This document shows positions 2,274 through 58,759 of a DNA stretch of 60,553 nucleotides, one piece after another. The stretch is from Candidatus Pacearchaeota archaeon. GTDB taxonomy: Archaea; Nanobdellota; Nanobdellia; Pacearchaeales; GW2011-AR1. The stretch lies in the NCBI GenBank assembly GCA_016181895.1, contig JACOYL010000010.1, forward strand, positions 1-60,553, in the 5' to 3' direction. The translations under genes and the position numbers were made by a program. The number at the start of each line of letters is the position of its first letter. Within the stretch, counting starts at the first letter, position 1. The notes under the pieces were generated by a model, which saw only the letters and a list, made by a program, of their open reading frames with translations, was not told where the DNA came from and made no database searches.

Positions 2274-2552
2274 TTAAAGTCTTTTCCTGTAAATATTGTC
2301 ATGATGGTCAAAATCCTCGAACGAAATAAGATTTTTACTTTTATCAAATTTAAAAACCAAAACAAAATGTCCTGCATGAATTCTTTTAAATTCCTTTAAA
2401 TCATGCCTTAAATTTTTGTAATGTTCAACGCTTTCAGAATTGACAATTTCCTCAATTTTTTTGATAACCTGCCTGTATAATTCCCTGTTCTTTTTGGAAA
2501 GTTTGTCCAGAATTCTTTGAAATTTTTCTGAATACTCAAATAAGTAAGGCAT
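2274..2552 (-). CDS. RelE/ParE-family toxin
   Basis: 92 aa; YLFEYSEKFQRILDKL...KRIHAGHFVLVF...DFDHHDNIY; coupled to an upstream small gene. Confidence 0.85.
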   Translation of the reverse strand: MPYLFEYSEKFQRILDKLSKKNRELYRQVIKKIEEIVNSESVEHYKNLRHDLKEFKRIHAGHFVLVFKFDKSKNLISFEDFDHHDNIYRKRL

Positions 2553-2553
2553 T

Positions 2554-2793
2554 TTATCCTTCTATTTGTCTTCTTAAATCATTAATGTCCTTGAAAGGGA
2601 TATGTTTTCCTTTGCTGATTTTTTTCAGCTTTTCCAAATATTCCGGTCTTAATTCTGGTTCTAGAAAACTTTCTTCGTATATTTTTGCAATCATTGCGAC
2701 TGCCTGCGACTTGTTTTTAAATCCGTATTTGGCTTTCACTATGTTTAGAATTCTATCCTCGTCTTCTCCTATATCAATTATGCTTTGGACCAT
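2554..2793 (-). CDS. antitoxin (DUF2683-like)
   Basis: MVQSIIDI...ILNIVKAKYGFKNKSQAV; stop-A-ATG junction to the toxin. Confidence 0.75.
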   Translation of the reverse strand: MVQSIIDIGEDEDRILNIVKAKYGFKNKSQAVAMIAKIYEESFLEPELRPEYLEKLKKISKGKHIPFKDINDLRRQIEG

Positions 2794-2870
2794 TTTACTT
2801 TATTATACTTTATAATGAATTATAATATTTATAAATTTATTGATTTTCATTGAGAAATCATGTTCTGTTT

Positions 2871-3695
2871 TCATCGTAAATAACCCGCATTTCTAAGATT
2901 TCTTTTAATTCTTTTTTCACTATTATCTTTTTCAGGAACAAATTTTGTTCCGATGACGGCTTCATAAAATCTCGCATATCTTGAGAATAATTCTGATTTT
3001 ACATCCTCTGGAATTTCAGGAATTGCTCCGTTTCCTGAGTATCCTCTTTCTTTTAGCCACGTCCTCAAAAATTCCTTGTCATATTGTCCTTTTGTCCTTG
3101 AAGAATCCGGTGTATGAATTTCATCTATAAGAACTAATTTTCCGTCGGCACCTCTAGCAAATTCATATTTGGTGTCCAAGAGCGTGAATTCTTCGCCTTT
3201 GCTCAGTGTTAAATTTTTTCCAAAATTAAACAATTCAAGGGCTTTGTATTTGATTTCTTCGTATTCTTTTTCCGTCAATACCCCCGTCCCAATAATTTCT
3301 TCTTTGGTTATTGGTTGGTCGTGAAAACCTTTTGCGGCTTTTGTAGTTGGGGTTACAATCGGCGTTTCAATTTCTTTCCAAGAATTATCTGGCCTTCTTA
3401 TGTGTCCCCTTACAATAATTTCCAAAGGGATGGGATTGCATCTTTTAACGACTAAAGTGTTTGGGTCTGGAACTTCAATTAAATGATTTTGAATTATGTG
3501 TTCTGTTTCTCCAAACCAAAAAGCCGAGAGTTGATTTAAAATTTGCCCTTTGCAAGGAATTGTGCCAAGCACAACATCAAATGCGGAAATCCTGTCTGTG
3601 GTAATCATGATAATTTTATCTTCCAGAAAATAAGAGTCTCTCACTTTCCCTTCGTGTTTTTTTCCAATATCTAAATTTGTTTTTTCAAGATTCAT
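2871..3695 (-). CDS. purC: SAICAR synthase (compact form)
   Basis: GKVRD, TDRISAFD, TPTTKA, DTKYEF, DEIHTPDSSR motifs; start reassigned to ATG 3695, overlapping the lhr stop. Confidence 0.9.
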   Translation of the reverse strand: MNLEKTNLDIGKKHEGKVRDSYFLEDKIIMITTDRISAFDVVLGTIPCKGQILNQLSAFWFGETEHIIQNHLIEVPDPNTLVVKRCNPIPLEIIVRGHIRRPDNSWKEIETPIVTPTTKAAKGFHDQPITKEEIIGTGVLTEKEYEEIKYKALELFNFGKNLTLSKGEEFTLLDTKYEFARGADGKLVLIDEIHTPDSSRTKGQYDKEFLRTWLKERGYSGNGAIPEIPEDVKSELFSRYARFYEAVIGTKFVPEKDNSEKRIKRNLRNAGYLR

Positions 3696-28607: not shown

Positions 28608-28655
28608 TTAACACCAAGAATAAGAATTGTTTTTGATGCAGAGTTCTTTAAATCT
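28608..28655. repeat. cassette-boundary repeat A
   Basis: shares AAGAATAAGAATTGT with B and C, GCAGAGTTC with C and D. Confidence 0.75.
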
Positions 28656-28761
28656 TTGCTCATAAATCTGTATCGTCTGATTTTATTCTTCAATCATTTA
28701 TTGCTGTTCTTGGATTGCCTAACAAGAAAAGATTTATATAGTTTTTAAGCCAAGAACTGAT

Positions 28762-28959
28762 ATGGCTGAAATAAAAATAAAAATTCCTGATGAAATAAGA
28801 GAGAGAATGCAAAAAGAGAGTATAAATATTTCTGTATTAATTGAGAGACTGATAAAACATTTAGAGGAAGAAAAGGAAATGATAGACTGGTCGGTTAAAT
28901 TGCAAAGGGCTTCTAGAAAAGGCAGATTTGATGAACTGAAAAAAAGAGGATTAATATGA
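28762..28959 (+). CDS. VapB-like antitoxin
   Basis: 65 aa; MAEIKIKIPDEI; directly before a PIN gene. Confidence 0.7.
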   Translation: MAEIKIKIPDEIRERMQKESINISVLIERLIKHLEEEKEMIDWSVKLQRASRKGRFDELKKRGLI

Positions 28960-28962
28960 ATT

Positions 28963-29367
28963 ATGAAATTTGTAGTGGACACAAACGTTTTATTTACATT
29001 TTTTTGGGATAATTCTTTTACCCGAGGAATATTACTTGACCAAGATTTTGAATTTTTTGCGCCGGAATATGCCTTGGAAGAAATCAATGATAAAACCAAT
29101 GAAATAATTAGAAAAACAGGGATTTCACACGATAAATTCAAGGAACTAAGAACAGATTTGGCAATATGCGTTGAATTCATTCCAACAGGAGAATATTCGG
29201 ATTTTTTACAAAAAGTTTCGGACATTCCTGACAAAAATGATGCTGATTTCGTTGCATTGGCATTAAAACTTAAACTTCCTCTTTGGTCCAATGATAAACA
29301 ACTTAAAAAACAATCGTTGGTTAAAGTTTATTCAACAAAAGAAATTCTTAAACTATTATACAAATAA
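28963..29367 (+). CDS. PIN-domain (VapC-like) toxin
   Basis: VVDTNVL, DKNDADFVALA, LWSND. Confidence 0.9.
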   Translation: MKFVVDTNVLFTFFWDNSFTRGILLDQDFEFFAPEYALEEINDKTNEIIRKTGISHDKFKELRTDLAICVEFIPTGEYSDFLQKVSDIPDKNDADFVALALKLKLPLWSNDKQLKKQSLVKVYSTKEILKLLYK

Positions 29368-29374
29368 TTTTTCC

Positions 29375-29428
29375 TCAAGCATCTCCAATGTCTGTGAATT
29401 CTTAGCAGAAAGAATAAGAATTGTCTTT
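29375..29428. repeat. cassette-boundary repeat B
   Basis: 30/33 nt identical to D; 23 nt identical to C. Confidence 0.8.
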
Positions 29429-29468
29429 CTTAAAGTCTGATTATATTTATGCAATGCTTATATAATTC

Positions 29469-30098
29469 CTAATCAATTTGAAATAATTCTCTTTCTTCAT
29501 CAAGTCCATCTACTTCCTTTTTTCCGTCTGTACCGCAATGCAAAAGGGCTGCATAAGGATACATAAAGTCTTCTGGATTTTCTGAATGCCCATATCCAAG
29601 ATGATGTCCCTGTTCATGGACCGAAACATGGTAAAAAGGAAGTCCTGTTTCCGAAAGATTTAATTCAGGGCTTCTTTCTCTTATAACGCAATCAGTCCAT
29701 TCAGAGTAAAAGGGATATCCGGAAGATGAAAAAGTTGTATTATATACGATGTTTTTTATCCCTACAAAAGGGTCTCCCCCTGCATAAGCCATGACTTGAT
29801 GATTTAATTCCCCCAAATCCATAAAAAACGCCCTGTTCTCGGAAGTTTCATCAGATATATTTTCAATCTTCCAGTATCTTCCCGCTTCTATAAATAATTC
29901 CTGTTGCCAGCGTTCTAATTCCAATAGGTTAAATTCCAATGAGGGCTTTTCTTCCGGATAATTATCTCCTGTTTTAACATCGGGGTCATCCTTGCATGAA
30001 GAGAATCCAATTGCCAAAGCACCAATCAATAAGGTTCCCCCTAAAATTCTTGCCAGTCCGTTTGCAAACTTCCCATGCTCTCTGACCGATTTATTCAT
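29469..30098 (-). CDS. metzincin (matrixin-like) metalloprotease, lipoprotein-like
   Basis: HEQGHHLGYGH plus Met-turn FMYP; GFSSC lipobox-like signal. Confidence 0.8.
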   Translation of the reverse strand: MNKSVREHGKFANGLARILGGTLLIGALAIGFSSCKDDPDVKTGDNYPEEKPSLEFNLLELERWQQELFIEAGRYWKIENISDETSENRAFFMDLGELNHQVMAYAGGDPFVGIKNIVYNTTFSSSGYPFYSEWTDCVIRERSPELNLSETGLPFYHVSVHEQGHHLGYGHSENPEDFMYPYAALLHCGTDGKKEVDGLDEERELFQID

Positions 30099-30145
30099 TC
30101 AAAGGCAAAAAAAATCAGGTTTAAAAACAATGCGGTTTTAGTTTT

Positions 30146-30194
30146 CAACAGAAAGAATAAGAATTGTCTTTTGGGCAGAGTTCTAATTTTAATC
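30146..30194. repeat. cassette-boundary repeat C
   Basis: CAGAAAGAATAAGAATTGTCTTT...GCAGAGTTC; abuts the PemK stop. Confidence 0.8.
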
Positions 30195-30524
30195 TTATTT
30201 GATTAATTCTTTTAATTTTTTTGTTAATTCATCAAACACTTTCTTCTTTTTTTCAGAATTTAAATGGAAAAGGATTTTTGAAGCCATTTTCTTGGAAATT
30301 GTAAAGATATAATTCAATTTTATTACGCTATCTTTTATTGCTCCGTCTTTTCTGGATATAAAAATTCCTTCCATTTTTATATTGCTTGTAATTCCTGCCA
30401 CAACTATGTTATCATATTCTTCAAATAAAACAAGAACAGGTCTTTTTTTAATTTCAAATGTGTCTGTAAACTGAGTTTCAGCCAGAATTACATCTCCTGA
30501 CCTAAGCATTTTCCCATTCTTCAT
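30195..30524 (-). CDS. PemK/MazF-family toxin
   Basis: GDVILAETQFTD...KKRPVLVL...ITS...DSVIKLNYIFTI. Confidence 0.85.
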   Translation of the reverse strand: MKNGKMLRSGDVILAETQFTDTFEIKKRPVLVLFEEYDNIVVAGITSNIKMEGIFISRKDGAIKDSVIKLNYIFTISKKMASKILFHLNSEKKKKVFDELTKKLKELIK

Positions 30525-30726
30525 CCTCTTTATTATTCCAGAGTTCTCTCATTTTCTGCTGTTGTATTTTATGGAGAAATTCATCATATTGATTTCTTTT
30601 TCTCAAGGTTTTGAAAATATCAATCATTTTCTTAATTAATTCTTCATATGTTTGTCTTGGATGCTCTCTTATTTCCTTTAATGCCTCTAGTACGGATTTA
30701 TTTAATTGAATTGTTGTTTTTTCCAT
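30502..30726 (-). CDS. antitoxin partner of the PemK-like toxin
   Basis: MEKTTIQL...TYEELI; acidic tail LWNNKEDEEW; overlaps the toxin start. Confidence 0.7.
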   Translation of the reverse strand: MEKTTIQLNKSVLEALKEIREHPRQTYEELIKKMIDIFKTLRKRNQYDEFLHKIQQQKMRELWNNKEDEEWENA

Positions 30727-30776
30727 ATATAATTAACTATAGAGAATTATATAAAGTTTTCTGTTTTCAATTATTT

Positions 30777-30850
30777 TCAAGCATCTCCGATGTCTGTGAA
30801 TTTTTAACACCAACTATAATTCTTGTTTTGAGAGCAGAGTTCGTTAATCT
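30777..30850. repeat. cassette-boundary repeat D (longest)
   Basis: TCAAGCATCTCCGATGTCTGTGAATT...GCAGAGTTC. Confidence 0.8.
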
Positions 30851-31316: not shown

Positions 31317-31952
31317 TCATTGTCTTATGCAAACCAAATATTGAACATAAGGTGCGTTTGTCAATGCAGTTGAACCTCCGTCGCTTGGTTTCTGGGAAGA
31401 AACATTTACAACATCTACTGCGTGGGTATGGATTGATTCAGTTGAAGTTGAACCAGTAACATCATGAATGTGCGCCGCAGATGTGTGTGTATGGTCTGCG
31501 CTTTGCCACCCGCCGTTGAAATCAAATGTTCCTGTCACAGAAGTGTTGAATGGAAAGAACGCGCTTGATTCATAACCGTTAAGATATTTTGAATTGAAAG
31601 AATAAGGAACTCTTGCAAGTTGCGAAGTGCTTTGCAATGTTCCGTCACGATAATAGCAAAGCCAGTACTGGTCTGTGAAATTCAAATTAACATTTTCAAG
31701 ATAATAACTTACAATTCCTCTTACATCTGTGGCTTGCGTTGTCGCATTTGCAAAAACAATATTATCCACATTGGTGCAACCGTTGGTTGTTGAAATGTTA
31801 AATCCAAACTTGAAAGTTCCCGTTTGAATGTTTCCCGAAGAATCGCGGACTTGAATGTTAAGATGCATGTCGTCTTCTATCGCGGCAGATGAAATCAAAG
31901 TTATTGAAAATAATAATGCGATTAACAGCAGATAGTTCAACCCCTTTTTCAT
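31317..31952 (-). CDS. secreted protein with tail-fibre-tip-like C-terminus
   Basis: signal peptide; HxH repeats; ends NAPYVQYLVC like the 36505 ORF. Confidence 0.7.
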   Translation of the reverse strand: MKKGLNYLLLIALLFSITLISSAAIEDDMHLNIQVRDSSGNIQTGTFKFGFNISTTNGCTNVDNIVFANATTQATDVRGIVSYYLENVNLNFTDQYWLCYYRDGTLQSTSQLARVPYSFNSKYLNGYESSAFFPFNTSVTGTFDFNGGWQSADHTHTSAAHIHDVTGSTSTESIHTHAVDVVNVSSQKPSDGGSTALTNAPYVQYLVCIRQ

Positions 31953-33377: not shown

Positions 33378-33800
33378 ATGGGAATCAAAAACGCGCTGAA
33401 ATTGAAAAAGAACAGGAAAAAGCTTAGATGGAAGGACCATAAATACAAGTCGAAAACGCTCAATTTGTATGCAAAGGCGGACCCGCTCGAGGGAAAAAAT
33501 CAGGCAAAGGGAATCGTCCTGCAAAAAATCCAGAAGGAGGCGAAGCAGCCGAATTCCGCGATGAGAAAGTGCTGCAAGGTTCAATTGACAAAAAACGGAA
33601 AAACAGTCACTGCTTTCATTCCGGGAAATCTTGCGCAAAAATTCATCGACGAGCACGATGAAGTCATGATTGAAAGAATCGGCGGAAAACAGGGAAGGTC
33701 AAAAGGAGACATTCCCGGCGTCAGGTTCAAAGTCATAAAAGTAAACGACCAGCCCCTGCATTTGCTGTGGCAGGGAAAAATAGAAAAGGGAAGAAGATGA
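33378..33800 (+). CDS. rps12: 30S ribosomal protein S12 (uS12)
   Basis: [20 protein letters not shown]. Confidence 0.97.
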
Positions 33801-34153
33801 ATGCTCAAAAACATGAACAAGTTGAAAAAGAACTTGAAAGATTAGTAAGCGTTATAATAGAAGTTGTTCCTTCATTAACAGAAGTTAGAGTTTTTGGAAG
33901 TTATAATAATGGAAATTGGAATCCTGAAACTTCAGACATTGATGTTTTTGTGGAACTTGAAGAAGGGACATTATCTATAATGAAAAAGGAAGAAATTGAA
34001 AAAATAGCTAGAGAAAGAATTAACGGCACACATTCTCATAAGTTTAGCATTGCTTTAGGGACTGAAATTAGTTTTTGTCTTTATCACTATAGTCTATATA
34101 GAAATATGAAATCAGGCAGACTTTTATATTCAAGTCAGGAGACAGCGGCTTAA
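33797..34153 (+). CDS. nucleotidyltransferase-domain protein (orphan MNT)
   Basis: VFGSY...SDIDVFV; ATGA overlap with rps12. Confidence 0.8.
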
Positions 34154-34154
34154 A

Positions 34155-34424
34155 ATGCAAGAACAAAAATATGTTTCTGGAGAAATTGAAGTGACACAAA
34201 GGCATTATGGATTGTCAAATTGCATTCTTTCAAAACTTTTGGATAGCGAGCTTAGGATTTATCAGACAGGAAAGAACGGAACCGTCTACTTGCTTGATTT
34301 TTTGCGGGGAAGAAGTAATGTTCTCGTCACACAAAATAAAATTAAATTGAATCATGTGCCTAGAAGAGTTTTTTCAAAATTAGAAGAATTTTTTGGAACA
34401 TCTAGAGAAGGAGAATTAAATTAA
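34155..34424 (+). CDS. hypothetical protein
   Basis: 89-aa ORF with TAA-A-ATG junctions on both sides. Confidence 0.6.
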   Translation: MQEQKYVSGEIEVTQRHYGLSNCILSKLLDSELRIYQTGKNGTVYLLDFLRGRSNVLVTQNKIKLNHVPRRVFSKLEEFFGTSREGELN

Positions 34425-34425
34425 A

Positions 34426-35040
34426 ATGTCAGAGCAAAAAACAATTCAAAATTTCAAAATATTCGACTTGTATGACTTGTCGGAGGTTTCAGTTTCGGAT
34501 TTGGGATTAAAACCAGTGATAAATCTTCAACCGAAATTGATTTTGAAGAGTCATGGAAGAAACGTGCAAAAAATGGGGCAGACAAAAGTCAATGTTGTCG
34601 AGAGATTGATGAACAAGCTTGCTGTCGCAGGACATCGGGGAAAAAAGCACAAAATAGAATTGGGAAGAATCACTGGAAAATACACGAAAAACATGGGAAT
34701 AATTCTCGAAGCATTAAAACTTGTTCATGAAAAAACAAAACAAAATCCCGTGCAGATTCTTGTGAAGGCGATTGAAAACGCCGCGCCAAGAGATGAAATA
34801 ACAGTGATTGAATACGGCGGTGCGCGTTATCCTCAGGCGGTTGACGTTTCTCCATTGAGGCGCGTGAATCTTGCATTGAAGCACATCATTCATGGAGCAT
34901 CGGACAAGGCTTTCAATAAAAAGAAGACGATTGTCCAGGGGCTTGCGGAGGAAATAATTCTTGCCTCCGAGAACAACGGAGAAAGTTTTGCAATCAGGAA
35001 AAGAAACGAGGCCGAGAAACAAGCAGACAGTGCGAGATAG
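34426..35040 (+). CDS. rps7: 30S ribosomal protein S7 (uS7)
   Basis: AIENAAPRDE, AVDVSPLRRV, E.QADSAR end. Confidence 0.97.
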   Translation: MSEQKTIQNFKIFDLYDLSEVSVSDLGLKPVINLQPKLILKSHGRNVQKMGQTKVNVVERLMNKLAVAGHRGKKHKIELGRITGKYTKNMGIILEALKLVHEKTKQNPVQILVKAIENAAPRDEITVIEYGGARYPQAVDVSPLRRVNLALKHIIHGASDKAFNKKKTIVQGLAEEIILASENNGESFAIRKRNEAEKQADSAR

Positions 35041-35078
35041 ACAGTTAGTTTTATAAAATATGAACGTTTTGTTCGTTA

Positions 35079-35255
35079 ATGGAAAAAGTAAATGTAAGTA
35101 AATCTGCAATAAATGATTTGATAAGGTTAAAAGAAGAATTTGATTCTGTAATTGAATCTCTTGAATTGATTAATGATGATAAATTTATGAGTTCTTATAA
35201 AAAATCCAAGGAGCAGATTAAAAAAAGAGATTTTGATAATTGGGATGAGTTATAA
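35079..35255 (+). CDS. RelB-like antitoxin (58 aa)
   Basis: Hand translation MEKVNVSKSAIND...IESLELINDDKFM...WDEL; overlaps the toxin start. Confidence 0.7.
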   Translation: MEKVNVSKSAINDLIRLKEEFDSVIESLELINDDKFMSSYKKSKEQIKKRDFDNWDEL

Positions 35256-35493
35256 AATTCTTCCTACAAAGGAATTTTCAAACGATTTTAAAAAGATTAC
35301 TTCAGATTTTCAGAAAAGAATTAAAAATAAAATTGAAGAAGTTGCTGAAAATCCTGAAAGATATAAACACCTGCATTATGATTTAAAAGGGAGTTGTAGG
35401 ATAAGGGTTGGAAAATTAAGAGTTATTTTTTCTTATGATATTGATAAAAAGGAACTTTATCCCGAGAAAATAGTTTTTGGACATAATTATTGA
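35245..35493 (+). CDS. RelE/ParE-family toxin
   Basis: YKIL.TKEFSNDFKK...RIRVGKLRVIF. Confidence 0.88.
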   Translation: MSYKILPTKEFSNDFKKITSDFQKRIKNKIEEVAENPERYKHLHYDLKGSCRIRVGKLRVIFSYDIDKKELYPEKIVFGHNY

Positions 35494-35501
35494 AAGTTCT
35501 A

Positions 35502-35528
35502 AAAAAGCAGGCCGATAGCGCGAGATAA
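35502..35528 (+). repeat. displaced rps7 3' end, copy 2
   Basis: AAA AAG CAG GCC GAT AGC GCG AGA TAA = KKQADSAR*. Confidence 0.85.
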
Positions 35529-35566
35529 TTCAATAGATTTTTAATAATTGTTTTTTTAATTTATTT

Positions 35567-35860
35567 ATGAGTTATATTTTTGAGATTAAAGACAAGACAG
35601 GAAGAAAAATTCGTTTAACAAAGAAGCAATGGAAGCATATTACAACAAAACATCCCGATATGTCTGGAAAAGAGGAAGAAATAAAACAAGTTTTGGAAAG
35701 GCCCGATATTATCCTGCCGCATAAATTTGATGAAATGTCAAGAAATTATTATTTGTATGATAAAAATGAAAAAGCATATTTATTTGTTTCAGCAAGATAT
35801 TTAAACGGCGAGGGTTTTATTATAACGGCATTTTATACTCAACATATTAGGAAAAAATGA
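35567..35860 (+). CDS. putative RNase toxin (BECR/DUF4258-like)
   Basis: RLTKKQWKHI..KHP...YLNGEGFIITAFY; coupled to a DUF2283-like gene. Confidence 0.7.
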   Translation: MSYIFEIKDKTGRKIRLTKKQWKHITTKHPDMSGKEEEIKQVLERPDIILPHKFDEMSRNYYLYDKNEKAYLFVSARYLNGEGFIITAFYTQHIRKK

Positions 35861-36096
35861 CAGACAGAAAAATAGAATTAAACTATGAACCTGAAACAGA
35901 TTTACTGGAGATTTTTATAGGGGACCCTGTGCCGTCTTATTTTAACGAGATAGATGATGATTTGTTTGAGGGACATAGTAAGGAGACAAATGAATTAACA
36001 GGATATAAAATATTTAATCTGAGCAAGAGAAAAAAACAGGAATGGATTAAAAGCGTTAAAATCTCTTTGCCTGCTAATGTTAACATAACTTCTTGA
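35857..36096 (+). CDS. DUF2283-like antitoxin
   Basis: NYEPETDLLEIFIG. Confidence 0.7.
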   Translation: MTDRKIELNYEPETDLLEIFIGDPVPSYFNEIDDDLFEGHSKETNELTGYKIFNLSKRKKQEWIKSVKISLPANVNITS

Positions 36097-36097
36097 T

Positions 36098-36154
36098 TAT
36101 TTAAACGGCGAAAGTTTTGTTATAACAGCATATTTTGTTAGAAATATAAGTTAA
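36098..36154 (+). pseudogene. 18-codon tail of a homologous toxin gene
   Basis: YLNGESFVITAYFVRNIS*; exactly 300 bp after the same motif at 35798. Confidence 0.75.
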
Positions 36155-36155
36155 A

Positions 36156-36395
36156 ATGGAAGGGAAAATGAGTATTTATTATGACGAGGAAGGAGATTAC
36201 TTGGAGATATTTATAGAGGGACAAAGCCCAACATATGGGGAAGATATTGGAGATGACATTACATTGTTTAAGAAAGAAGAAAATAATGAAGTTGTGGGCG
36301 TTGGAATCTTAAATTTTAAAGAGAGGGCAAAATCTCTTAATGACATAAAACTCAATTTGCCGTTTAATGTTAATTTTTCCATGTTAAAAGTTTAG
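36156..36395 (+). CDS. orphan DUF2283-like antitoxin
   Basis: YYDEEGDYLEIF...GVGILNF. Confidence 0.75.
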   Translation: MEGKMSIYYDEEGDYLEIFIEGQSPTYGEDIGDDITLFKKEENNEVVGVGILNFKERAKSLNDIKLNLPFNVNFSMLKV

Positions 36396-36462
36396 ACAAG
36401 GTTTTGAGTGCAAAAACCCTTTCCGAAGTGAATGTTTAAATAAATAGTTTTATTTATTCTGA

Positions 36463-36486
36463 AAGCGGGCTGATAGCGCGAGGTGA
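36463..36486 (+). repeat. displaced rps7 3' end, copy 3
   Basis: AAG CGG GCT GAT AGC GCG AGG TGA = KRADSAR*. Confidence 0.8.
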
Positions 36487-36504: not shown

Positions 36505-37254
36505 TTAATTTTTCCTGCAAACAAGATATTGGATGTAAGGAGCATTTGTTCCTGTAACACTTCCTGTGTTTGCAGTAGAGCCACTAATTGTGTGTGCGTG
36601 TGCGCCGGTTGTACTAGTAGTCACAGTCGAACTTCCAGCTGATCCGGTTTTTACATAAACATTTCCGCTACCAGAATCTGCTCTAAAGGTGTGTGAATGC
36701 CCTCCTGTATTATATGTATATAATGTCCCAACTCCATGATTATGCTGTCCGACTACCCTCTCCTCTCTATTCCCCAAAATTGTTCCAACAGTTCCTGCCA
36801 AAATTCCACCAGAAGGCAAGCCAACCAAATATCTTCCTCTTGCAGCCGTCACTGCTGCCCATCCTGTAGGACAGGAAGTCGCATCAAAAAACATAATTGC
36901 GCCGGAAGGAACCGTATCATCAATTCCATCACATAATGCTGCTCCCCCTGTTATAGCGGCACAACTTCCTTTATCTTTAACATAAGAATTTACAGTCGGA
37001 TCGGTTTCAACACTAGATGGCAAATTACTACAACTCCAAGCACTTCCAGACATTTTCAAAATTTCACCATTTGAACAAGGTTGAAGTTGAGATAAAGAAT
37101 GACCCGGGTTTGGAGTTGTTCCCGCAACAGCCCAAACCCCGACTCCGACAATCAATAAAATCAAAATCGCAATTAATGTATATGCAGTTCTTTGAGAAAT
37201 TGAAAGGTTAAATGTAAAATTATATTTGCCTCTTTTTCGAGTTTGTTTTCTCAT
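36505..37254 (-). CDS. membrane-anchored protein with phage tail-collar-like domain
   Basis: TM helix; VPSGAIMFF....CPTGW; GRYLVG; HxH repeats; NAPYIQYLVC. Confidence 0.75.
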   Translation of the reverse strand: MRKQTRKRGKYNFTFNLSISQRTAYTLIAILILLIVGVGVWAVAGTTPNPGHSLSQLQPCSNGEILKMSGSAWSCSNLPSSVETDPTVNSYVKDKGSCAAITGGAALCDGIDDTVPSGAIMFFDATSCPTGWAAVTAARGRYLVGLPSGGILAGTVGTILGNREERVVGQHNHGVGTLYTYNTGGHSHTFRADSGSGNVYVKTGSAGSSTVTTSTTGAHAHTISGSTANTGSVTGTNAPYIQYLVCRKN

Positions 37255-37421: not shown

Positions 37422-37670
37422 AACCGTGCCAGAACACAAGGTAAATCCTGACGGATTTAGCATCGGCGTTCGAGGAGAAGTCAATTTTATTTTGTTTAAT
37501 GAGTCAAAGCAATTCAGATTTTTTAAACAAAGCCTAAGAAAAAGGAAATGTTGAAAAATTTATTTAACAATTTTAAACACTCCAATTTAAGGCGAAAGAT
37601 GGATTGTATTGTATTAATTAACAAATTAACATTCAATAAAATTTATAATCTCTTTTTCCTTTCTCTTAAT

Positions 37671-39368
37671 ATGAAAGAAGTGATTTCTCAAATCTTGAAA
37701 AAAGCCCTGAAAGAATTAAATATTAATTTGAAAGAAGAGGAAATAATAAAATTCATTGAAGTTCCCCCTTCTTTTGAAATGGGCGATTACGCGTTTCCGT
37801 GTTTTTTTCTTTCTCGGATTTTAAAAGAGGAACCAAGGGAAATAGCCATTCAAATACGGGAGAAAATAAAGGAAATTCCCGAGGAATTCGAGGACATTGA
37901 AACTCTTGGGGGTTACGTTAATTTTTTTGTTGACAGAAAAAATCAAATTTCGGAAACGATCAATGAAATTCTTTCAAAAAAAGAAAGGTTCGGCAAGCCA
38001 AAACTTGACGAAAAAAACAAGACAATGGTTGAATTCTCGCAGCCGAACACACACAAGGCGTTTCATGTGGGACACATAAGAGGAACTTCGCTTGGAGAAA
38101 GCATCTCGCGGATTTTGGAATTTTCAGGGGATAGGGTTACAAGGGCGAATTACAGTGGAGATACTGGAATGCACGTTGCAAAATGGCTTTGGTGCTACAC
38201 AAAATATCACTCAAAAGAAAAATTGACAAACGACGAATCTTGGATTGCAAGAATTTATGTGGAAGCCATAAAAAAACTTGAAGACAACAAGAAATTCCAG
38301 GAGGAAGTCAATGTGATAAACTGGGCTCTTGAAGGAAAGAAAAACAAGAAATTAAGCCAAGTGTGGAAAAAATCCCGAAAACTCTCGATTGATTCATGGA
38401 AGAAAATTTACAAGGAACTTAATGTGAAATTCGACGTTCAGTTTTTTGAAAGCGAGATGGAAAAAAGGGCGAAGAAAATCGCCTATGAATTAAGAAACAG
38501 AAAAATAGCAAGCAAAAGCGAGGGAGCAATAATTGTTAATCTGAAAAAATACAATTTAGGAGTCTGGGTTTTATTGAGAAAAGACGGCACGGTTCTCTAC
38601 TCCGCAAAAGACCTGGCTCTTGCAGAAAAAAAGATTTCAAGATACAAGATAAACAAGAACGTTCTTGTAATCGGCGCCGCACAATCGCTTCATATTTCCC
38701 AATTGTTCAAAACTCTTGAATTGATGAAATTGAATTCAACAAAAAACATTTTCGTTCCTTTTTCCGAAGTTCGTTTGCCTTCGGGAAAAATGTCTTCGCG
38801 AACAGGAGAAAACATTCTTTATTCCGAATTCATGAAAGAAATGAATGATTATGCAAAAAATGAAATCAAGAAAAGGGAAAAAGAAATTTCAAAAGCCGAA
38901 TTGGAAAAACGCTCATTGAAAATTTCAATAGCGGCGATAAAATATTCAATGCTGAAGCAAAATTCTGGAAAAAACATAATTTTCAGCAGGGAAGAATCTT
39001 TGAATTTTGAAGGGGACTCCGGCCCATATCTTCTTTACAGTTATGCAAGGGCAAAATCAATTTTGAGAAAATCAAAAAAGAAAAATCAAGAAGATTTTTT
39101 GGAAGAAATGGAAGACGAGGAAATAAAACTTGTGAAAATGTTTTCTCTTTTTCCCGAAACAGTTTTTAATGCATACAAAAATTTGAATCCGAGCCTGATT
39201 GCGAATTATTCCTACAAGTTGGCTCAAAGTTTCAATGAATTTTATCATTCCTGTCCTGTGATAAATTCAAAAAATGAAAATTTCAGGATAAAACTTGTGA
39301 AATCTTTTGTTCTTGTCATGAAAAATTGTTTGAATTTGCTTGGAATTCAAACTCTCGACAAAATGTGA
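37671..39368 (+). CDS. argS: arginyl-tRNA synthetase
   Basis: SQPNTHKAFHVGH, KMSSRTG, GDSGPYLLYSYAR; start reassigned to MKEVIS. Confidence 0.96.
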   Translation: MKEVISQILKKALKELNINLKEEEIIKFIEVPPSFEMGDYAFPCFFLSRILKEEPREIAIQIREKIKEIPEEFEDIETLGGYVNFFVDRKNQISETINEILSKKERFGKPKLDEKNKTMVEFSQPNTHKAFHVGHIRGTSLGESISRILEFSGDRVTRANYSGDTGMHVAKWLWCYTKYHSKEKLTNDESWIARIYVEAIKKLEDNKKFQEEVNVINWALEGKKNKKLSQVWKKSRKLSIDSWKKIYKELNVKFDVQFFESEMEKRAKKIAYELRNRKIASKSEGAIIVNLKKYNLGVWVLLRKDGTVLYSAKDLALAEKKISRYKINKNVLVIGAAQSLHISQLFKTLELMKLNSTKNIFVPFSEVRLPSGKMSSRTGENILYSEFMKEMNDYAKNEIKKREKEISKAELEKRSLKISIAAIKYSMLKQNSGKNIIFSREESLNFEGDSGPYLLYSYARAKSILRKSKKKNQEDFLEEMEDEEIKLVKMFSLFPETVFNAYKNLNPSLIANYSYKLAQSFNEFYHSCPVINSKNENFRIKLVKSFVLVMKNCLNLLGIQTLDKM

Positions 39369-41312: not shown

Positions 41313-42119
41313 TCACTTCACGTTCTTCATATCCTTCCAAGCCAAATCAAAAAGTTGTTCAAGCGCGGAGGCGAAAAACTCCGTGTTTATCCAGACTCCC
41401 GTGTCGTAATTCGGATGGAATTTTTCGTCATCAAGAAGCATGAACATGACTTGATTGCTGTCGATGATTGCAAATCTTGCCTTGATTTTTTCCATGTTTC
41501 TTATTTCCGCGACTTTCTTCAAGTCCCTTGCAACTTTTACATTGTTGTTGTCGACAGGCGCGGCAATTCTTACTTTCACGCCGCGCTTTTTCAGTTTTTC
41601 CAAACTAGGCATCAATGCTTCAAACTTTCTGTTCAAGCCTTCTTTTGTCGTGACAATCACAACTGATTTCTCCGCGTTTCTTATCATCATGTCAAGATGA
41701 TTGTACAGGTTTTGTCTTCCTTTCAGGCTTCCCGACAAATCAGTTGGCTCGATGAATTTTATTCCCTGCGTGAAAATCGTGTTCAGTTCTTCCAAAACCT
41801 CGTCGGTTTTCAATGTCTCAAGCCTTTTTGTTTTTTCCTGCGCGTCCTTTACAAGATTTTTTTTCACCCTTTCAATGACCTCTTCCGGTTTTAGAGCCAC
41901 AAATTTAATCGGCTTCCCCAATTTCATCACAATGAAACCTTTTTTCTCCAAGCTCTCAAGAATATCATAGGTTCTGCTTCTTGGCACGTCGGAAATGTTG
42001 CTTAATTCTCCCGCAGTGCTCGTTCCCCTCGACAATAAGGCGGTCCAAACCTTTACCTCATAAAGATTCAAATCAAAAATTTTTCGTAGACGGCTTAGAA
42101 ATTCTTCCTTTACTATCAT
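41313..42119 (-). CDS. TrmB-family transcriptional regulator
   Basis: LNLYEVKVW..LL..G..TAGELS..SDVPRSRTYDILESL. Confidence 0.9.
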   Translation of the reverse strand: MIVKEEFLSRLRKIFDLNLYEVKVWTALLSRGTSTAGELSNISDVPRSRTYDILESLEKKGFIVMKLGKPIKFVALKPEEVIERVKKNLVKDAQEKTKRLETLKTDEVLEELNTIFTQGIKFIEPTDLSGSLKGRQNLYNHLDMMIRNAEKSVVIVTTKEGLNRKFEALMPSLEKLKKRGVKVRIAAPVDNNNVKVARDLKKVAEIRNMEKIKARFAIIDSNQVMFMLLDDEKFHPNYDTGVWINTEFFASALEQLFDLAWKDMKNVK

Positions 42120-57755: not shown

Positions 57756-57821
57756 TCACTTCCCCTTCACCATCTTCCCCAATTTCCCCTTCCCCACCAA
57801 TTCAATCATTATGTCCGCGCC
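57756..57821 (-). repeat. displaced grxD 3' end
   Basis: GADIMIELVGKGKLGKMVKGK* versus the grxD end GADILVELAGKGELGKMVGK*. Confidence 0.85.
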
Positions 57822-57871
57822 AGTTAGGAACAAATTCACTCCGATAACAACAAAGGCATTAATTAACGCAA

Positions 57872-58120
57872 CTAAGAATCAGAGATGGAGATGTCCAAAG
57901 GAATAGACATGTTCAATCTTTTAAGAATTGTTTTCAGTATTTCTGTTCTTTTTCCGAACGCCACAATGCCTATGCTCTTCACTTCATTTGTTTTTGAATC
58001 TCGAGTTATCAAAACTTCCGAATCCAATTTTTCAGTATATTCTGTTTTTGGCGGAACTCCAAATGATACTTCCAAATAATCTCCTTCTTCATCGTAATAA
58101 ATGTCAACCGATTCTTTCAT
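57872..58120 (-). CDS. orphan DUF2283-like antitoxin
   Basis: IYYDEEGDYLEV...SIGIVAF. Confidence 0.78.
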   Translation of the reverse strand: MKESVDIYYDEEGDYLEVSFGVPPKTEYTEKLDSEVLITRDSKTNEVKSIGIVAFGKRTEILKTILKRLNMSIPLDISISDS

Positions 58121-58227
58121 TCGATCCTCTGCGCGAAATATGCGGATATGATAAATCCTTCTCCGTTTAAATATTTAACTAAGACAATCATGAATTTATT
58201 TGAAGAGTTTCTTTCTTTATAATATTT
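58117..58227 (-). pseudogene. C-terminal fragment of the YLNGEG-type toxin
   Basis: KYYKERNSSNKFMIVLVKYLNGEGFIISAYFAQRIE*; ATGA overlap with the antitoxin. Confidence 0.7.
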
Positions 58228-58360
58228 CTCTTGGGTCTAATTCTCCTGTTTTTAACCCTTGGATTATTTTCTCAAATTCTTCATAAACTTTATCAGGAAG
58301 ATTGTTAATTTTTTTATTAATTTCTTCGGAGAATTCAATCTTCCATTTTTTATTTTTCAT
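58217..58360 (-). pseudogene. N-terminal fragment of a RelE-like toxin (47 aa)
   Basis: MKNKKWKIEFSEEINKKINNLPDKVYEEF..., truncated. Confidence 0.5.
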
Positions 58361-58444
58361 AAAAAATTAACATAATTATATTATAAAAATATTTAGGGAT
58401 TGTAAAAAGGGATAAACGTGAAAGAGTTTATGATTAACAAGAAC

Positions 58445-58759
58445 TTATTTCCCCACCATCTTCCCCAACTCGCCTTTCCCAGCGAGTTCAACCAATATAT
58501 CGGCTCCGCCGATGAATTTTCCATTGACGAATAATTGCGGAATCGTCGGCCAGTTCGCGTATTCTTTCACGCCTTCGCGAATTGAATTGTCCGAAAGAAC
58601 ATCGAATGATTCAAACTGAATTCCCAAATCCTTTAATGTGTCCGCAGATTTCATTGAAAATCCGCACATAGGATTCTCAGGGGTTCCCTTCATGAAAAGA
58701 AAAACCTTGCTTGATTTTATCAGATTCTCTATCTGTTTTTTTGTTTCTGTCGTTAACAT
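58445..58759 (-). CDS. grxD: monothiol glutaredoxin (Grx4 family)
   Basis: FMKGTP..PMCGFS, WPTIPQLFV.G.FIGGAD. Confidence 0.95.
   Translation of the reverse strand: MLTTETKKQIENLIKSSKVFLFMKGTPENPMCGFSMKSADTLKDLGIQFESFDVLSDNSIREGVKEYANWPTIPQLFVNGKFIGGADILVELAGKGELGKMVGK

Follow-up and report, generated by a model that had tools for sequence, protein, structure and literature searches.

Displaced ends of the ribosomal protein gene rps7 bracket putative toxin-antitoxin cassettes in a Pacearchaeota genome

Introduction

How can the end of one ribosomal protein gene come to stand three times in a row on the same strand, with unrelated small genes lodged between the copies? The question is raised by the rps7 locus of a Candidatus Pacearchaeota archaeon (GenBank assembly GCA_016181895.1). 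We analyzed contig JACOYL010000010.1 over its full length of 60,553 nucleotides, hereafter the window, which is contig C11 of the genome that we designate G000. In the window, an intact gene for ribosomal protein S7 (rps7) is followed by two cassettes of small genes, each of which is closed by a further copy of the last codons of rps7 that we call an orphan tail. We favor a reading in which foreign cassettes were added behind rps7 on at least two separate occasions. To our knowledge, the movement of chromosomal toxin-antitoxin modules without an integrase or transposase is still largely unexplained.

The G000 assembly comprises 736 kb in 24 contigs, has a G+C content of 36%, and is about 90% complete. 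Relatives were retrieved through protein similarity and are labeled as metagenome-assembled genomes (MAGs) of Pacearchaeota, Woesearchaeota, or Nanoarchaeota. G-numbers denote genomes and L-numbers denote fetched loci.

Three ends of rps7 in the window

The sequence-only reading of the window had described three rps7 termini on the plus strand that use the stop codons TAG, TAA, and TGA and differ only synonymously within the peptide ADSAR-stop. This description proved accurate. The peptide is encoded by GCAGACAGTGCGAGATAG at the real rps7 end (35023-35040) and by GCCGATAGCGCGAGATAA (35511-35528) and GCTGATAGCGCGAGGTGA (36469-36486) in the two orphan tails. The repeat unit extends two codons farther upstream and spans 24 nucleotides that read K-Q-A-D-S-A-R-stop (Table 1). 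Over this unit, tail 2 differs from tail 1 at six nucleotides, all of them synonymous, and tail 3 carries a single replacement, Q to R. The longest identical runs among the three tails reach only 8-11 bases. Chance origin of the three-tail match is negligible. A degenerate form of the tail pattern finds 0 matches in 100 shuffles of the window, and ADSAR-stop appears in the six-frame translation of the 736-kb genome at these three sites only. The high chance expectation that had been named as a possible refutation is thus not found.

Sampling of 20 relatives revealed that rps7 ends in EKQADSAR-stop in most of them, with a single substitution in a few (E[AS]QADSAR-stop or EKQADAAR-stop), and that the choice of synonymous codons in the tail varies freely. 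The orphan copies resemble the rps7 ends of other lineages, such as those of G030 (GCCGATAGCGCGCGTTAA) and G028 (GCTGATAGTGCGAGATAA). When the tails were compared with those of the nearest neighbors for the native copy, the neighbors' rps7 genes were 73-88% identical and their synonymous sites were saturated.

Searches against Pfam bear out the earlier description of the cassettes, in which the first was called relBE-like and the second a toxin with two DUF2283-like genes. Cassette 1 encodes a 58-amino-acid partner and an 86-amino-acid toxin of the ParE/RelE family; the gene for the partner is invariably paired with the toxin gene in at least 20 relatives. Cassette 2 encodes a PBECR2-like toxin and two 79-amino-acid proteins that are 38% identical to each other. 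Relatives of the PBECR2-like toxin occur in other DPANN MAGs in varied contexts, always with a DUF2283-type gene next downstream. Each cassette combines adjacent small genes with a recognized toxin fold family (PF05016, PF18810, PF10049), the arrangement by which type II toxin-antitoxin systems are assigned, and both are putative toxin-antitoxin modules. Of a second PBECR2-like toxin gene, only the final ~19 codons persist (36098-36156), between the two DUF2283 genes of cassette 2; they read YLNGESFVITAYFVRNIS followed by a stop codon. Cassette 2 therefore combines two related pairs, and in one of them the toxin gene is mostly gone.

The same-genus genomes whose sequence continues past rps7, G001 and G004, reveal how the locus looks without cassettes. 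In G001, rps7 is followed by approximately 150 nucleotides and then the gene for arginyl-tRNA synthetase. In G004, a 269-amino-acid convergent gene ends 15 nucleotides past the rps7 stop codon and the synthetase gene comes next. In the window, the corresponding convergent gene ends 19 nucleotides past tail 3, a position by which it evidently marks the former downstream flank of rps7. Given the empty layout in the genus and the position of this flank, the 1,446 bp from tail 1 to tail 3 constitute an insertion relative to the genus. The sequence-only reading had also pointed to the missing gene for elongation factor 2 (EF-2), which follows rps7 in many other genera. The gene is indeed absent here and lies on contig C10 of G000; its absence behind rps7 is a trait of the lineage and is unrelated to the cassettes.

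Table 1 Features of the rps7 locus and other displaced gene ends in genome G000 (positions refer to the window unless a contig is named)
Feature	Position	Strand	Basis and remarks
rps12 (ribosomal protein S12)	33378-33800	+	Pfam PF00164, E=8e-40; 74-94% amino acid identity in relatives; upstream partner in conserved rps12-rps7 pair
MNT-like nucleotidyltransferase	33797-34153	+	Pfam PF01909, E=1e-9; inserted between rps12 and rps7
89-amino-acid open reading frame (ORF)	34155-34424	+	no Pfam family; inserted between rps12 and rps7
rps7 (ribosomal protein S7), 204 amino acids	34426-35040	+	Pfam PF00177, E=1e-34; ends EKQADSAR-stop
Tail 1, functional last 7 codons and stop	35017-35040	+	AAACAAGCAGACAGTGCGAGATAG; stop TAG
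Cassette 1, putative antitoxin, 58 amino acids	35079-35255	+	ORF, no Pfam family; preceded by TATA-like TTTATAAAATA
Cassette 1, putative ParE/RelE-family toxin, 86 amino acids from TTG or 82 from ATG at 35245	35233-35493	+	Pfam PF05016, E=4e-7
Tail 2, orphan rps7 end	35505-35528	+	AAGCAGGCCGATAGCGCGAGATAA, KQADSAR-stop; stop TAA
Cassette 2, putative PBECR2-like (barnase/EndoU/RelE-like nuclease) toxin, 97 amino acids	35567-35860	+	Pfam PF18810, E=2e-6
Cassette 2, DUF2283-like putative antitoxin no. 1, 79 amino acids	35857-36096	+	38% identical to Pfam-positive no. 2
Remnant, 3' end of second related toxin gene, 59 nucleotides	36098-36156	+	76% identical to 35798-35856, by repeat search
Cassette 2, DUF2283 putative antitoxin no. 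2, 79 amino acids	36156-36395	+	Pfam PF10049, E=6e-6
Tail 3, orphan rps7 end	36463-36486	+	AAGCGGGCTGATAGCGCGAGGTGA, KRADSAR-stop; stop TGA; preceded by in-frame stop codon
Surface-type protein, 249 amino acids, convergent	36505-37254	-	homologue adjoins rps7 in same-genus G004
Arginyl-tRNA synthetase homologue	37548-39368	+	61-64% amino acid identity to the ORF after rps7 in G001, G004, and G030; named from HVGH motif in translation
grx displaced tail, 21 codons	57756-57821	-	beyond toxin-antitoxin debris
ogg	contig C5		gene-end scan; MazF and antitoxin between tails, opposite strand
ftsY	contig C9		gene-end scan; antitoxin and PIN/VapC between tails
EF-2	contig C16		gene-end scan; antitoxin and ParE/RelE between tails
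gyrB	contig C21		gene-end scan; 71 nucleotides only between tails

Recurrence of extra rps7 tails in relatives

The survey downstream of rps7 that had been proposed as a check revealed relatives with variable content and extra tails. A degenerate 24-nucleotide pattern for the rps7 tail was run against 401 family genomes, with the reversed pattern as the control. Most of these genomes contain one rps7 tail, and the reversed pattern had no match in them. Extra tails occur in 12 of the 288 family genomes on which the frequency is stated (~4%), with two or three tails per contig on the same strand and spacings that range from 52 nucleotides to 7.5 kb. In a second sample, consisting of 80 metagenome rps7 loci, eight have two to four tails. 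Neither the family genomes nor the metagenome loci contain an extra tail on the opposite strand. At many loci, the stretch between tails measures merely 40-150 nucleotides and is devoid of genes. We excluded G070, G389, and L213 as evidence; runs of N adjoin their repeats, which may be scaffolding artifacts.

A particularly informative case is G224, a member of another genus. Here, rps7 is followed by a perfect 30-bp repeat of its own end, by cassette 1 (antitoxin and ParE/RelE), and by the same 30-bp repeat once more. The cassette genes of G224 and the window are 82-83% identical at the DNA level, whereas the rps7 genes are only 73% identical. The cassette genes are thus more conserved than rps7, which indicates that the transfer postdates the split of the hosts. 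G212 and G337 have a second type of cassette in common, in which a winged-helix-like ORF reads into the orphan tail and thereby ends in KQADSAR-stop. In G194, two long copies of the rps7 end are separated by 7.5 kb of DNA that includes an IS200-like fragment and carries genes for surface proteins.

The site is also prone to local duplication. In L183 (2173-2345), an rps7 tail lies within three 50-nucleotide tandem units, and L209 (1686-1960) contains four tails in 270 nucleotides.

Displaced ends of other genes

The whole of G000 was scanned for gene ends that recur, as 7-mers terminated by a stop codon, no more than 6 kb downstream of the gene itself, with the upstream side as the control. 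This k-mer scan was preferred to tblastn with 24-amino-acid gene ends, which is too insensitive for tails of seven codons. High-scoring matches were obtained downstream of genes only and none in the upstream control. The cases of ogg, ftsY, EF-2, gyrB, and grx (Table 1) show that attachment is not confined to the rps7 tail; in all, five or six gene ends are used in G000.

The grx case lies in the window itself (57756-58759). Behind the glutaredoxin gene grx (58445-58759, minus strand) come a RelE-like fragment, a DUF2283 gene (57872-58120), and the displaced grx tail, which reads GADIMIELVGKGKLGKMVKGK and a stop codon where the functional end reads GGADILVELAGKGELGKMVGK and a stop codon. The architecture is that of rps7 with a longer tail. 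For EF-2, the 2.4-kb contig C16 contains the gene's end, a ParE/RelE cassette, and the orphan EF-2 tail and is syntenic with C10:82020-86147. The identity between the two is just 72-80%, and C16 may derive from a relative and have been mis-binned. EF-2 tails (KGL[AS]ENQ-stop) are multiplied in ~11 of the 132 family genomes that have a match.

The cassette-1 family has a patchy distribution over 37 of the 401 genomes and 32 genera. Six genomes have a member immediately behind rps7, two (G150 and G066) have one behind EF-2 tails, and elsewhere members lie between other repeats of 15-106 nucleotides. In G150, the 33-nucleotide EF-2 tail together with 9 nucleotides is duplicated, with four synonymous differences. 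A tree of the family is poorly resolved and hints only at an rps7 pair (G000 and G224) and an EF-2 pair (G150 and G066).

Two further settings of these families were noticed. The cassette-1 copies at L108 (G094), L116 (G397), and L123 (G347), which come from different genera, have common flanks (left, CCTCAGAGACTAYACGC; right, GAAGATAYAGTCCGAAC) that possibly represent a conserved RNA gene or another carrier element. In L213, from a Woesearchaeota MAG, a relative of cassette 2 with 74% identity lies between perfect 55-nucleotide repeats (~2440-3250) that resemble the 5' half of a tRNA gene. A run of N adjoins one of these repeats, so that the arrangement may be a scaffolding artifact.

Divergence between functional and orphan tails

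Further analysis of 17 pairs of a functional and an orphan tail revealed 100 base differences. The changed codons comprise 77 synonymous and 2 non-synonymous ones, where random changes would yield ~64 non-synonymous codons, a ratio that is inflated because the tails were found by a peptide-based pattern. Most pairs differ at 25-40% of their bases and nevertheless encode the same peptide, and the changes include switches between AGY and TCN codons for serine and between AGR and CGN codons for arginine. Divergence of this extent and kind is not the neutral decay of an untranslated duplicate; each copy therefore diverged as a working gene end. To judge from their codons, the tails must be alleles from different lineages that were united by recombination. 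Degenerate tails are also present (the third tail of G224 and tails in G234 and L209), which indicates that decay follows later.

Cassette 1 has almost the same distal tail in G000 (GATAGCGCGAGATAA) as in G234 (GATAGTGCGAGATAA), although the host tails of the two genomes differ. This similarity suggests that a tail can travel with its cassette. The cassette common to G212 and G337 exhibits the opposite pattern, as expected if crossover points vary.

Search for a recombinase

Genome G000 has no match to PF00589 (Phage_integrase) and contains no Cas1. Its sole match to PF00239 (Resolvase) is a conserved TrmB-type regulator and not a true resolvase. The Resolvase-domain match of this TrmB-family protein (41313-42119, minus strand) is spurious, and the protein is 85-88% identical across genera, which exceeds the identity of rps7. 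Tyrosine recombinases of any kind, even the XerA type, were not detected in the 90%-complete G000 assembly. Most relatives checked have a tyrosine recombinase, and Xer-like genes lie on other contigs in them. Queries with the relatives' Xer-like proteins found no Xer-like gene in ~200 fetched rps7 or cassette loci. Given these results with PF00589, PF00239, Cas1, and the fetched loci, we rejected a resident integrase as far as the ~90%-complete assembly extends.

A viral attP site was likewise rejected, inasmuch as no viral contig contains an EKQADSAR-stop tail or a relative of the cassette-1 toxin. Folded sites of the attC type were a third candidate that we discarded; the tail regions fold no better than shuffled sequences (z = -0.3, +1.4, -0.5) and form no hairpin. 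The cassette ends have no inverted repeat pairs, and the cassettes contain no transposase. With Cas1 also absent and the tail copies 25-40% divergent, the locus does not qualify as a casposon or as a transposon with target-site duplication.

The idea of at least two sequential integrations at the rps7 tail, with which the sequence-only reading had concluded, is thus upheld in part. Empty sites in the genus, the cassette in G224, and the variable content of relatives agree with it; the rps7 tail is not a site reserved for such insertions, and no integrase was found.

Neighboring features of the window

Upstream of rps7, the rps12-rps7 pair is itself interrupted. The two genes abut in several of the relatives compared, and unrelated small ORFs separate them in others. 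In the window (33797-34440), the start of the MNT-like gene overlaps the stop codon of rps12 (ATGA), and the first 20 nucleotides of the 89-amino-acid ORF, TTAAAATGCAAGAACAAAAA, resemble the start of rps7, TTAAAATGTCAGAGCAAAAA. This similarity could be a duplicated gene "head" or the result of chance.

Two surface-type proteins encoded on the minus strand, at 31317-31952 and 36505-37254, have a common C-terminal motif, NAPY(V/I)QYLVC. Farther upstream, a 44-nucleotide repeat occurs four times (28608-30847; copies at 28608, 29402, 30145, and 30804) within this region. The units that its copies keep apart are a VapBC-like pair, a metzincin-like lipoprotein, a PemK pair, and a small membrane protein. 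Read from the minus strand, the repeat encodes a stop-terminated peptide (…NSYSWC-stop). Its source gene was not found, and the tail of the neighboring gene at 31317-31952 does not match.

Discussion

Repeats of coding origin, cassettes that are foreign and mobile, their recurrence at several genes and in many genomes, and the absence of a detectable recombinase characterize the rps7 locus as we observe it. To account for this combination, we lean with modest confidence toward a recombinase-free, homology-anchored accretion of addictive toxin-antitoxin cassettes at conserved gene ends. The two self-stabilizing cassettes of the window would have been acquired horizontally and stacked stepwise at the rps7 end, with recombination falling within the conserved last ~24 bases of the gene. 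The incoming DNA would have brought a cassette together with an rps7 end derived from the working gene of another lineage. This incoming tail may have joined the resident rps7 end by a single crossover of a circular cassette, or by a homologous join combined with a short-homology join of a linear fragment. Either way, the gene would remain intact, the cassette would come to lie past the stop codon, and a second tail would stand distal to the cassette; repeated events would generate the order tail-cassette-tail-cassette-tail. The likeliest agent would be homologous recombination of the host rather than a dedicated integrase, and conserved gene ends would act as portable homology arms. The recombination route and the circular form belong to the model rather than to the observations, as do the identity of the native tail and the sequence in which the two cassettes arrived.

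Such a model would explain two features of the targets and the cargo. Targets are highly conserved housekeeping genes because conserved ends would serve as homology arms. Toxin-antitoxin genes would predominate among the cargo because a segment flanked by direct repeats tends to be deleted if the cell pays no penalty for losing it.

Several points weigh against homology-anchored accretion. A stretch of 24-30 nucleotides that is 75-90% identical is very short for homologous recombination, and we know of nothing that has been established about how these archaea recombine. In most genomes, and with different cassettes, orphan tails have nearly the same left edge, at the E|K codons; random crossovers would account for this constancy less well than a site-specific enzyme or shared ancestry would. 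Moreover, the genome is ~90% complete, and a recombinase could be encoded in the remainder or represent a family not yet recognized. The inflation of the synonymous ratio noted above belongs here as well.

The locus resembles several known systems. According to one proposal, arrays of displaced C-terminal ends behind rhs, and likewise cdiA, form when laterally acquired circles undergo homologous recombination with no dedicated recombinase, such that the newest end adjoins the gene (Jackson et al. 2009, PMC2935791). As at rps7, an intact gene is followed by co-oriented, displaced 3' ends with small cargo genes. However, the incoming ends of rhs encode different toxic tips and the homology lies in a long conserved core, whereas the rps7 tails encode the same seven residues (K(Q/R)ADSAR-stop) over ~24 nucleotides. 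The rps7 locus further differs in its archaeal host, in a cargo of unrelated toxin-antitoxin pairs, and in that the layout extends to many unrelated housekeeping genes.

In streptococci, integrative and conjugative elements (ICEs), integrative and mobilizable elements (IMEs), cis-mobilizable elements (CIMEs), and microCIMEs form tandem arrays at the 3' ends of rpsI, rpmG, rplL, and fda (PMC7563491; reviewed in PMC5704250). CIMEs are integrase-less units with cargo, and microCIMEs are gene-less units of 130-220 bp (PMC7563491; PMC5704250). Both they and the rps7-type loci target 3' ends of ribosomal or housekeeping genes, are delimited by direct repeats of the gene end, and form stacks that include gene-less units. 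The streptococcal arrays have a cognate tyrosine integrase on a neighboring ICE or IME, each integrase with one target, whereas no integrase was found for the rps7-type loci and one family uses several targets. Dehalococcoides carries genomic islands in tandem at its tmRNA gene, ssrA (PMC3146451), and there, too, repeated 3' ends of a conserved gene mark successive integrations, but these islands target an RNA gene, are large and integrase-associated, and reside in a bacterial host. Integron arrays share with rps7 an ordered series of small, mostly promoter-poor, toxin-antitoxin-rich cassettes, each followed by a site-like repeat, with one end anchored. Unlike integrons, the rps7 array lacks IntI (no PF00589 in the genome), consists of coding gene ends with no attC-like hairpin, and is anchored by a housekeeping gene rather than attI. 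The locus thus fails one defining feature of each of its nearest parallels: the tips are not different as in rhs arrays, and neither a cognate integrase nor a single target is present as for CIMEs. It is the first such case that we can document in DPANN archaea.

Among other explanations, the one that survives best states that the cassettes are minimal, non-autonomous, CIME-like elements, that the rps7 tail is a true att site, and that a recombinase acts in trans, whether of viral or plasmid origin, encoded in unassembled parts of the genome, or from an unrecognized family. Each unit is indeed bracketed by direct repeats of the target gene's 3' end, the stacking and the 40-150-nucleotide gene-less segments mirror CIME and microCIME accretion in streptococci (PMC7563491), and the nearly constant left boundary and the perfect 30-bp repeat in G224 point in the same direction. 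Against it, no tyrosine or serine recombinase or Cas1 was found in the genome, ~200 related loci are free of integrases, and viral contigs are free of the tail. The enzyme would also need many specificities, given at least five or six gene ends in G000 alone and one family at both rps7 and EF-2 tails, and would have to accept three window tails that share just 8-11 identical bases in a row. We regard this explanation as unlikely, though it deserves consideration.

It is improbable that the cassettes are what remains of larger viruses or plasmids that integrated at the rps7 end and lost everything except their addictive toxin-antitoxin genes. In favor, toxin-antitoxin modules are the parts most resistant to deletion, and G194 has 7.5 kb with an IS200-like fragment between long rps7-end copies. 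That insert, however, carries surface proteins and not genes of an element, the 0.48-kb cassette is delimited just as tightly in G224 as in G000 and has similar counterparts in many genomes, no locus contains remnants of integrase or viral genes, and the tail is absent from viral contigs.

Least probable by far is an unknown, transposition-like insertion that created target-site duplications of 24-30 bp which later diverged: duplicates are identical or nearly so in G224 (30 bp), L155, and G194 and are of like length (24-30 nucleotides) at different genes, but most pairs are 25-40% divergent with the same peptide and multi-base switches of serine and arginine codons that in-place decay cannot yield, duplicate lengths range from 15 to 106 nucleotides, and the cassettes lack terminal inverted repeats and a transposase, so that target-site duplication by a transposase was rejected.

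Under homology-anchored accretion, the rps7 locus and its parallels provide a concrete, testable route for the movement of toxin-antitoxin modules, in which conserved gene ends are short homology arms and displaced tails are an ordered fossil record. It is tempting to extend this route, albeit tentatively, to a conjecture that is attractive but short of probable: conserved gene ends may be universal, enzyme-free landing pads for small toxin-antitoxin and similar selfish cassettes in DPANN archaea. The last ~7-10 codons of a highly conserved housekeeping gene would bracket a cassette, which would be excised as a circle between the repeats, cross between genera, and re-enter wherever an orthologue keeps the tail. 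Host recombination alone would thereby build integron-like ordered arrays behind rps7, EF-2, gyrB, and ftsY.

If this is true, DPANN archaea, which have genomes of <1 Mb and here no detectable site-specific recombinase, exchange cassettes across genera, and their ribosomal-protein operons are hotspots of insertion. Orphan gene tails would be an easy signature with which to find integrase-less islets and to date and order their acquisition. The locus thus points to a general, possibly enzyme-free spread of toxin-antitoxin cassettes.

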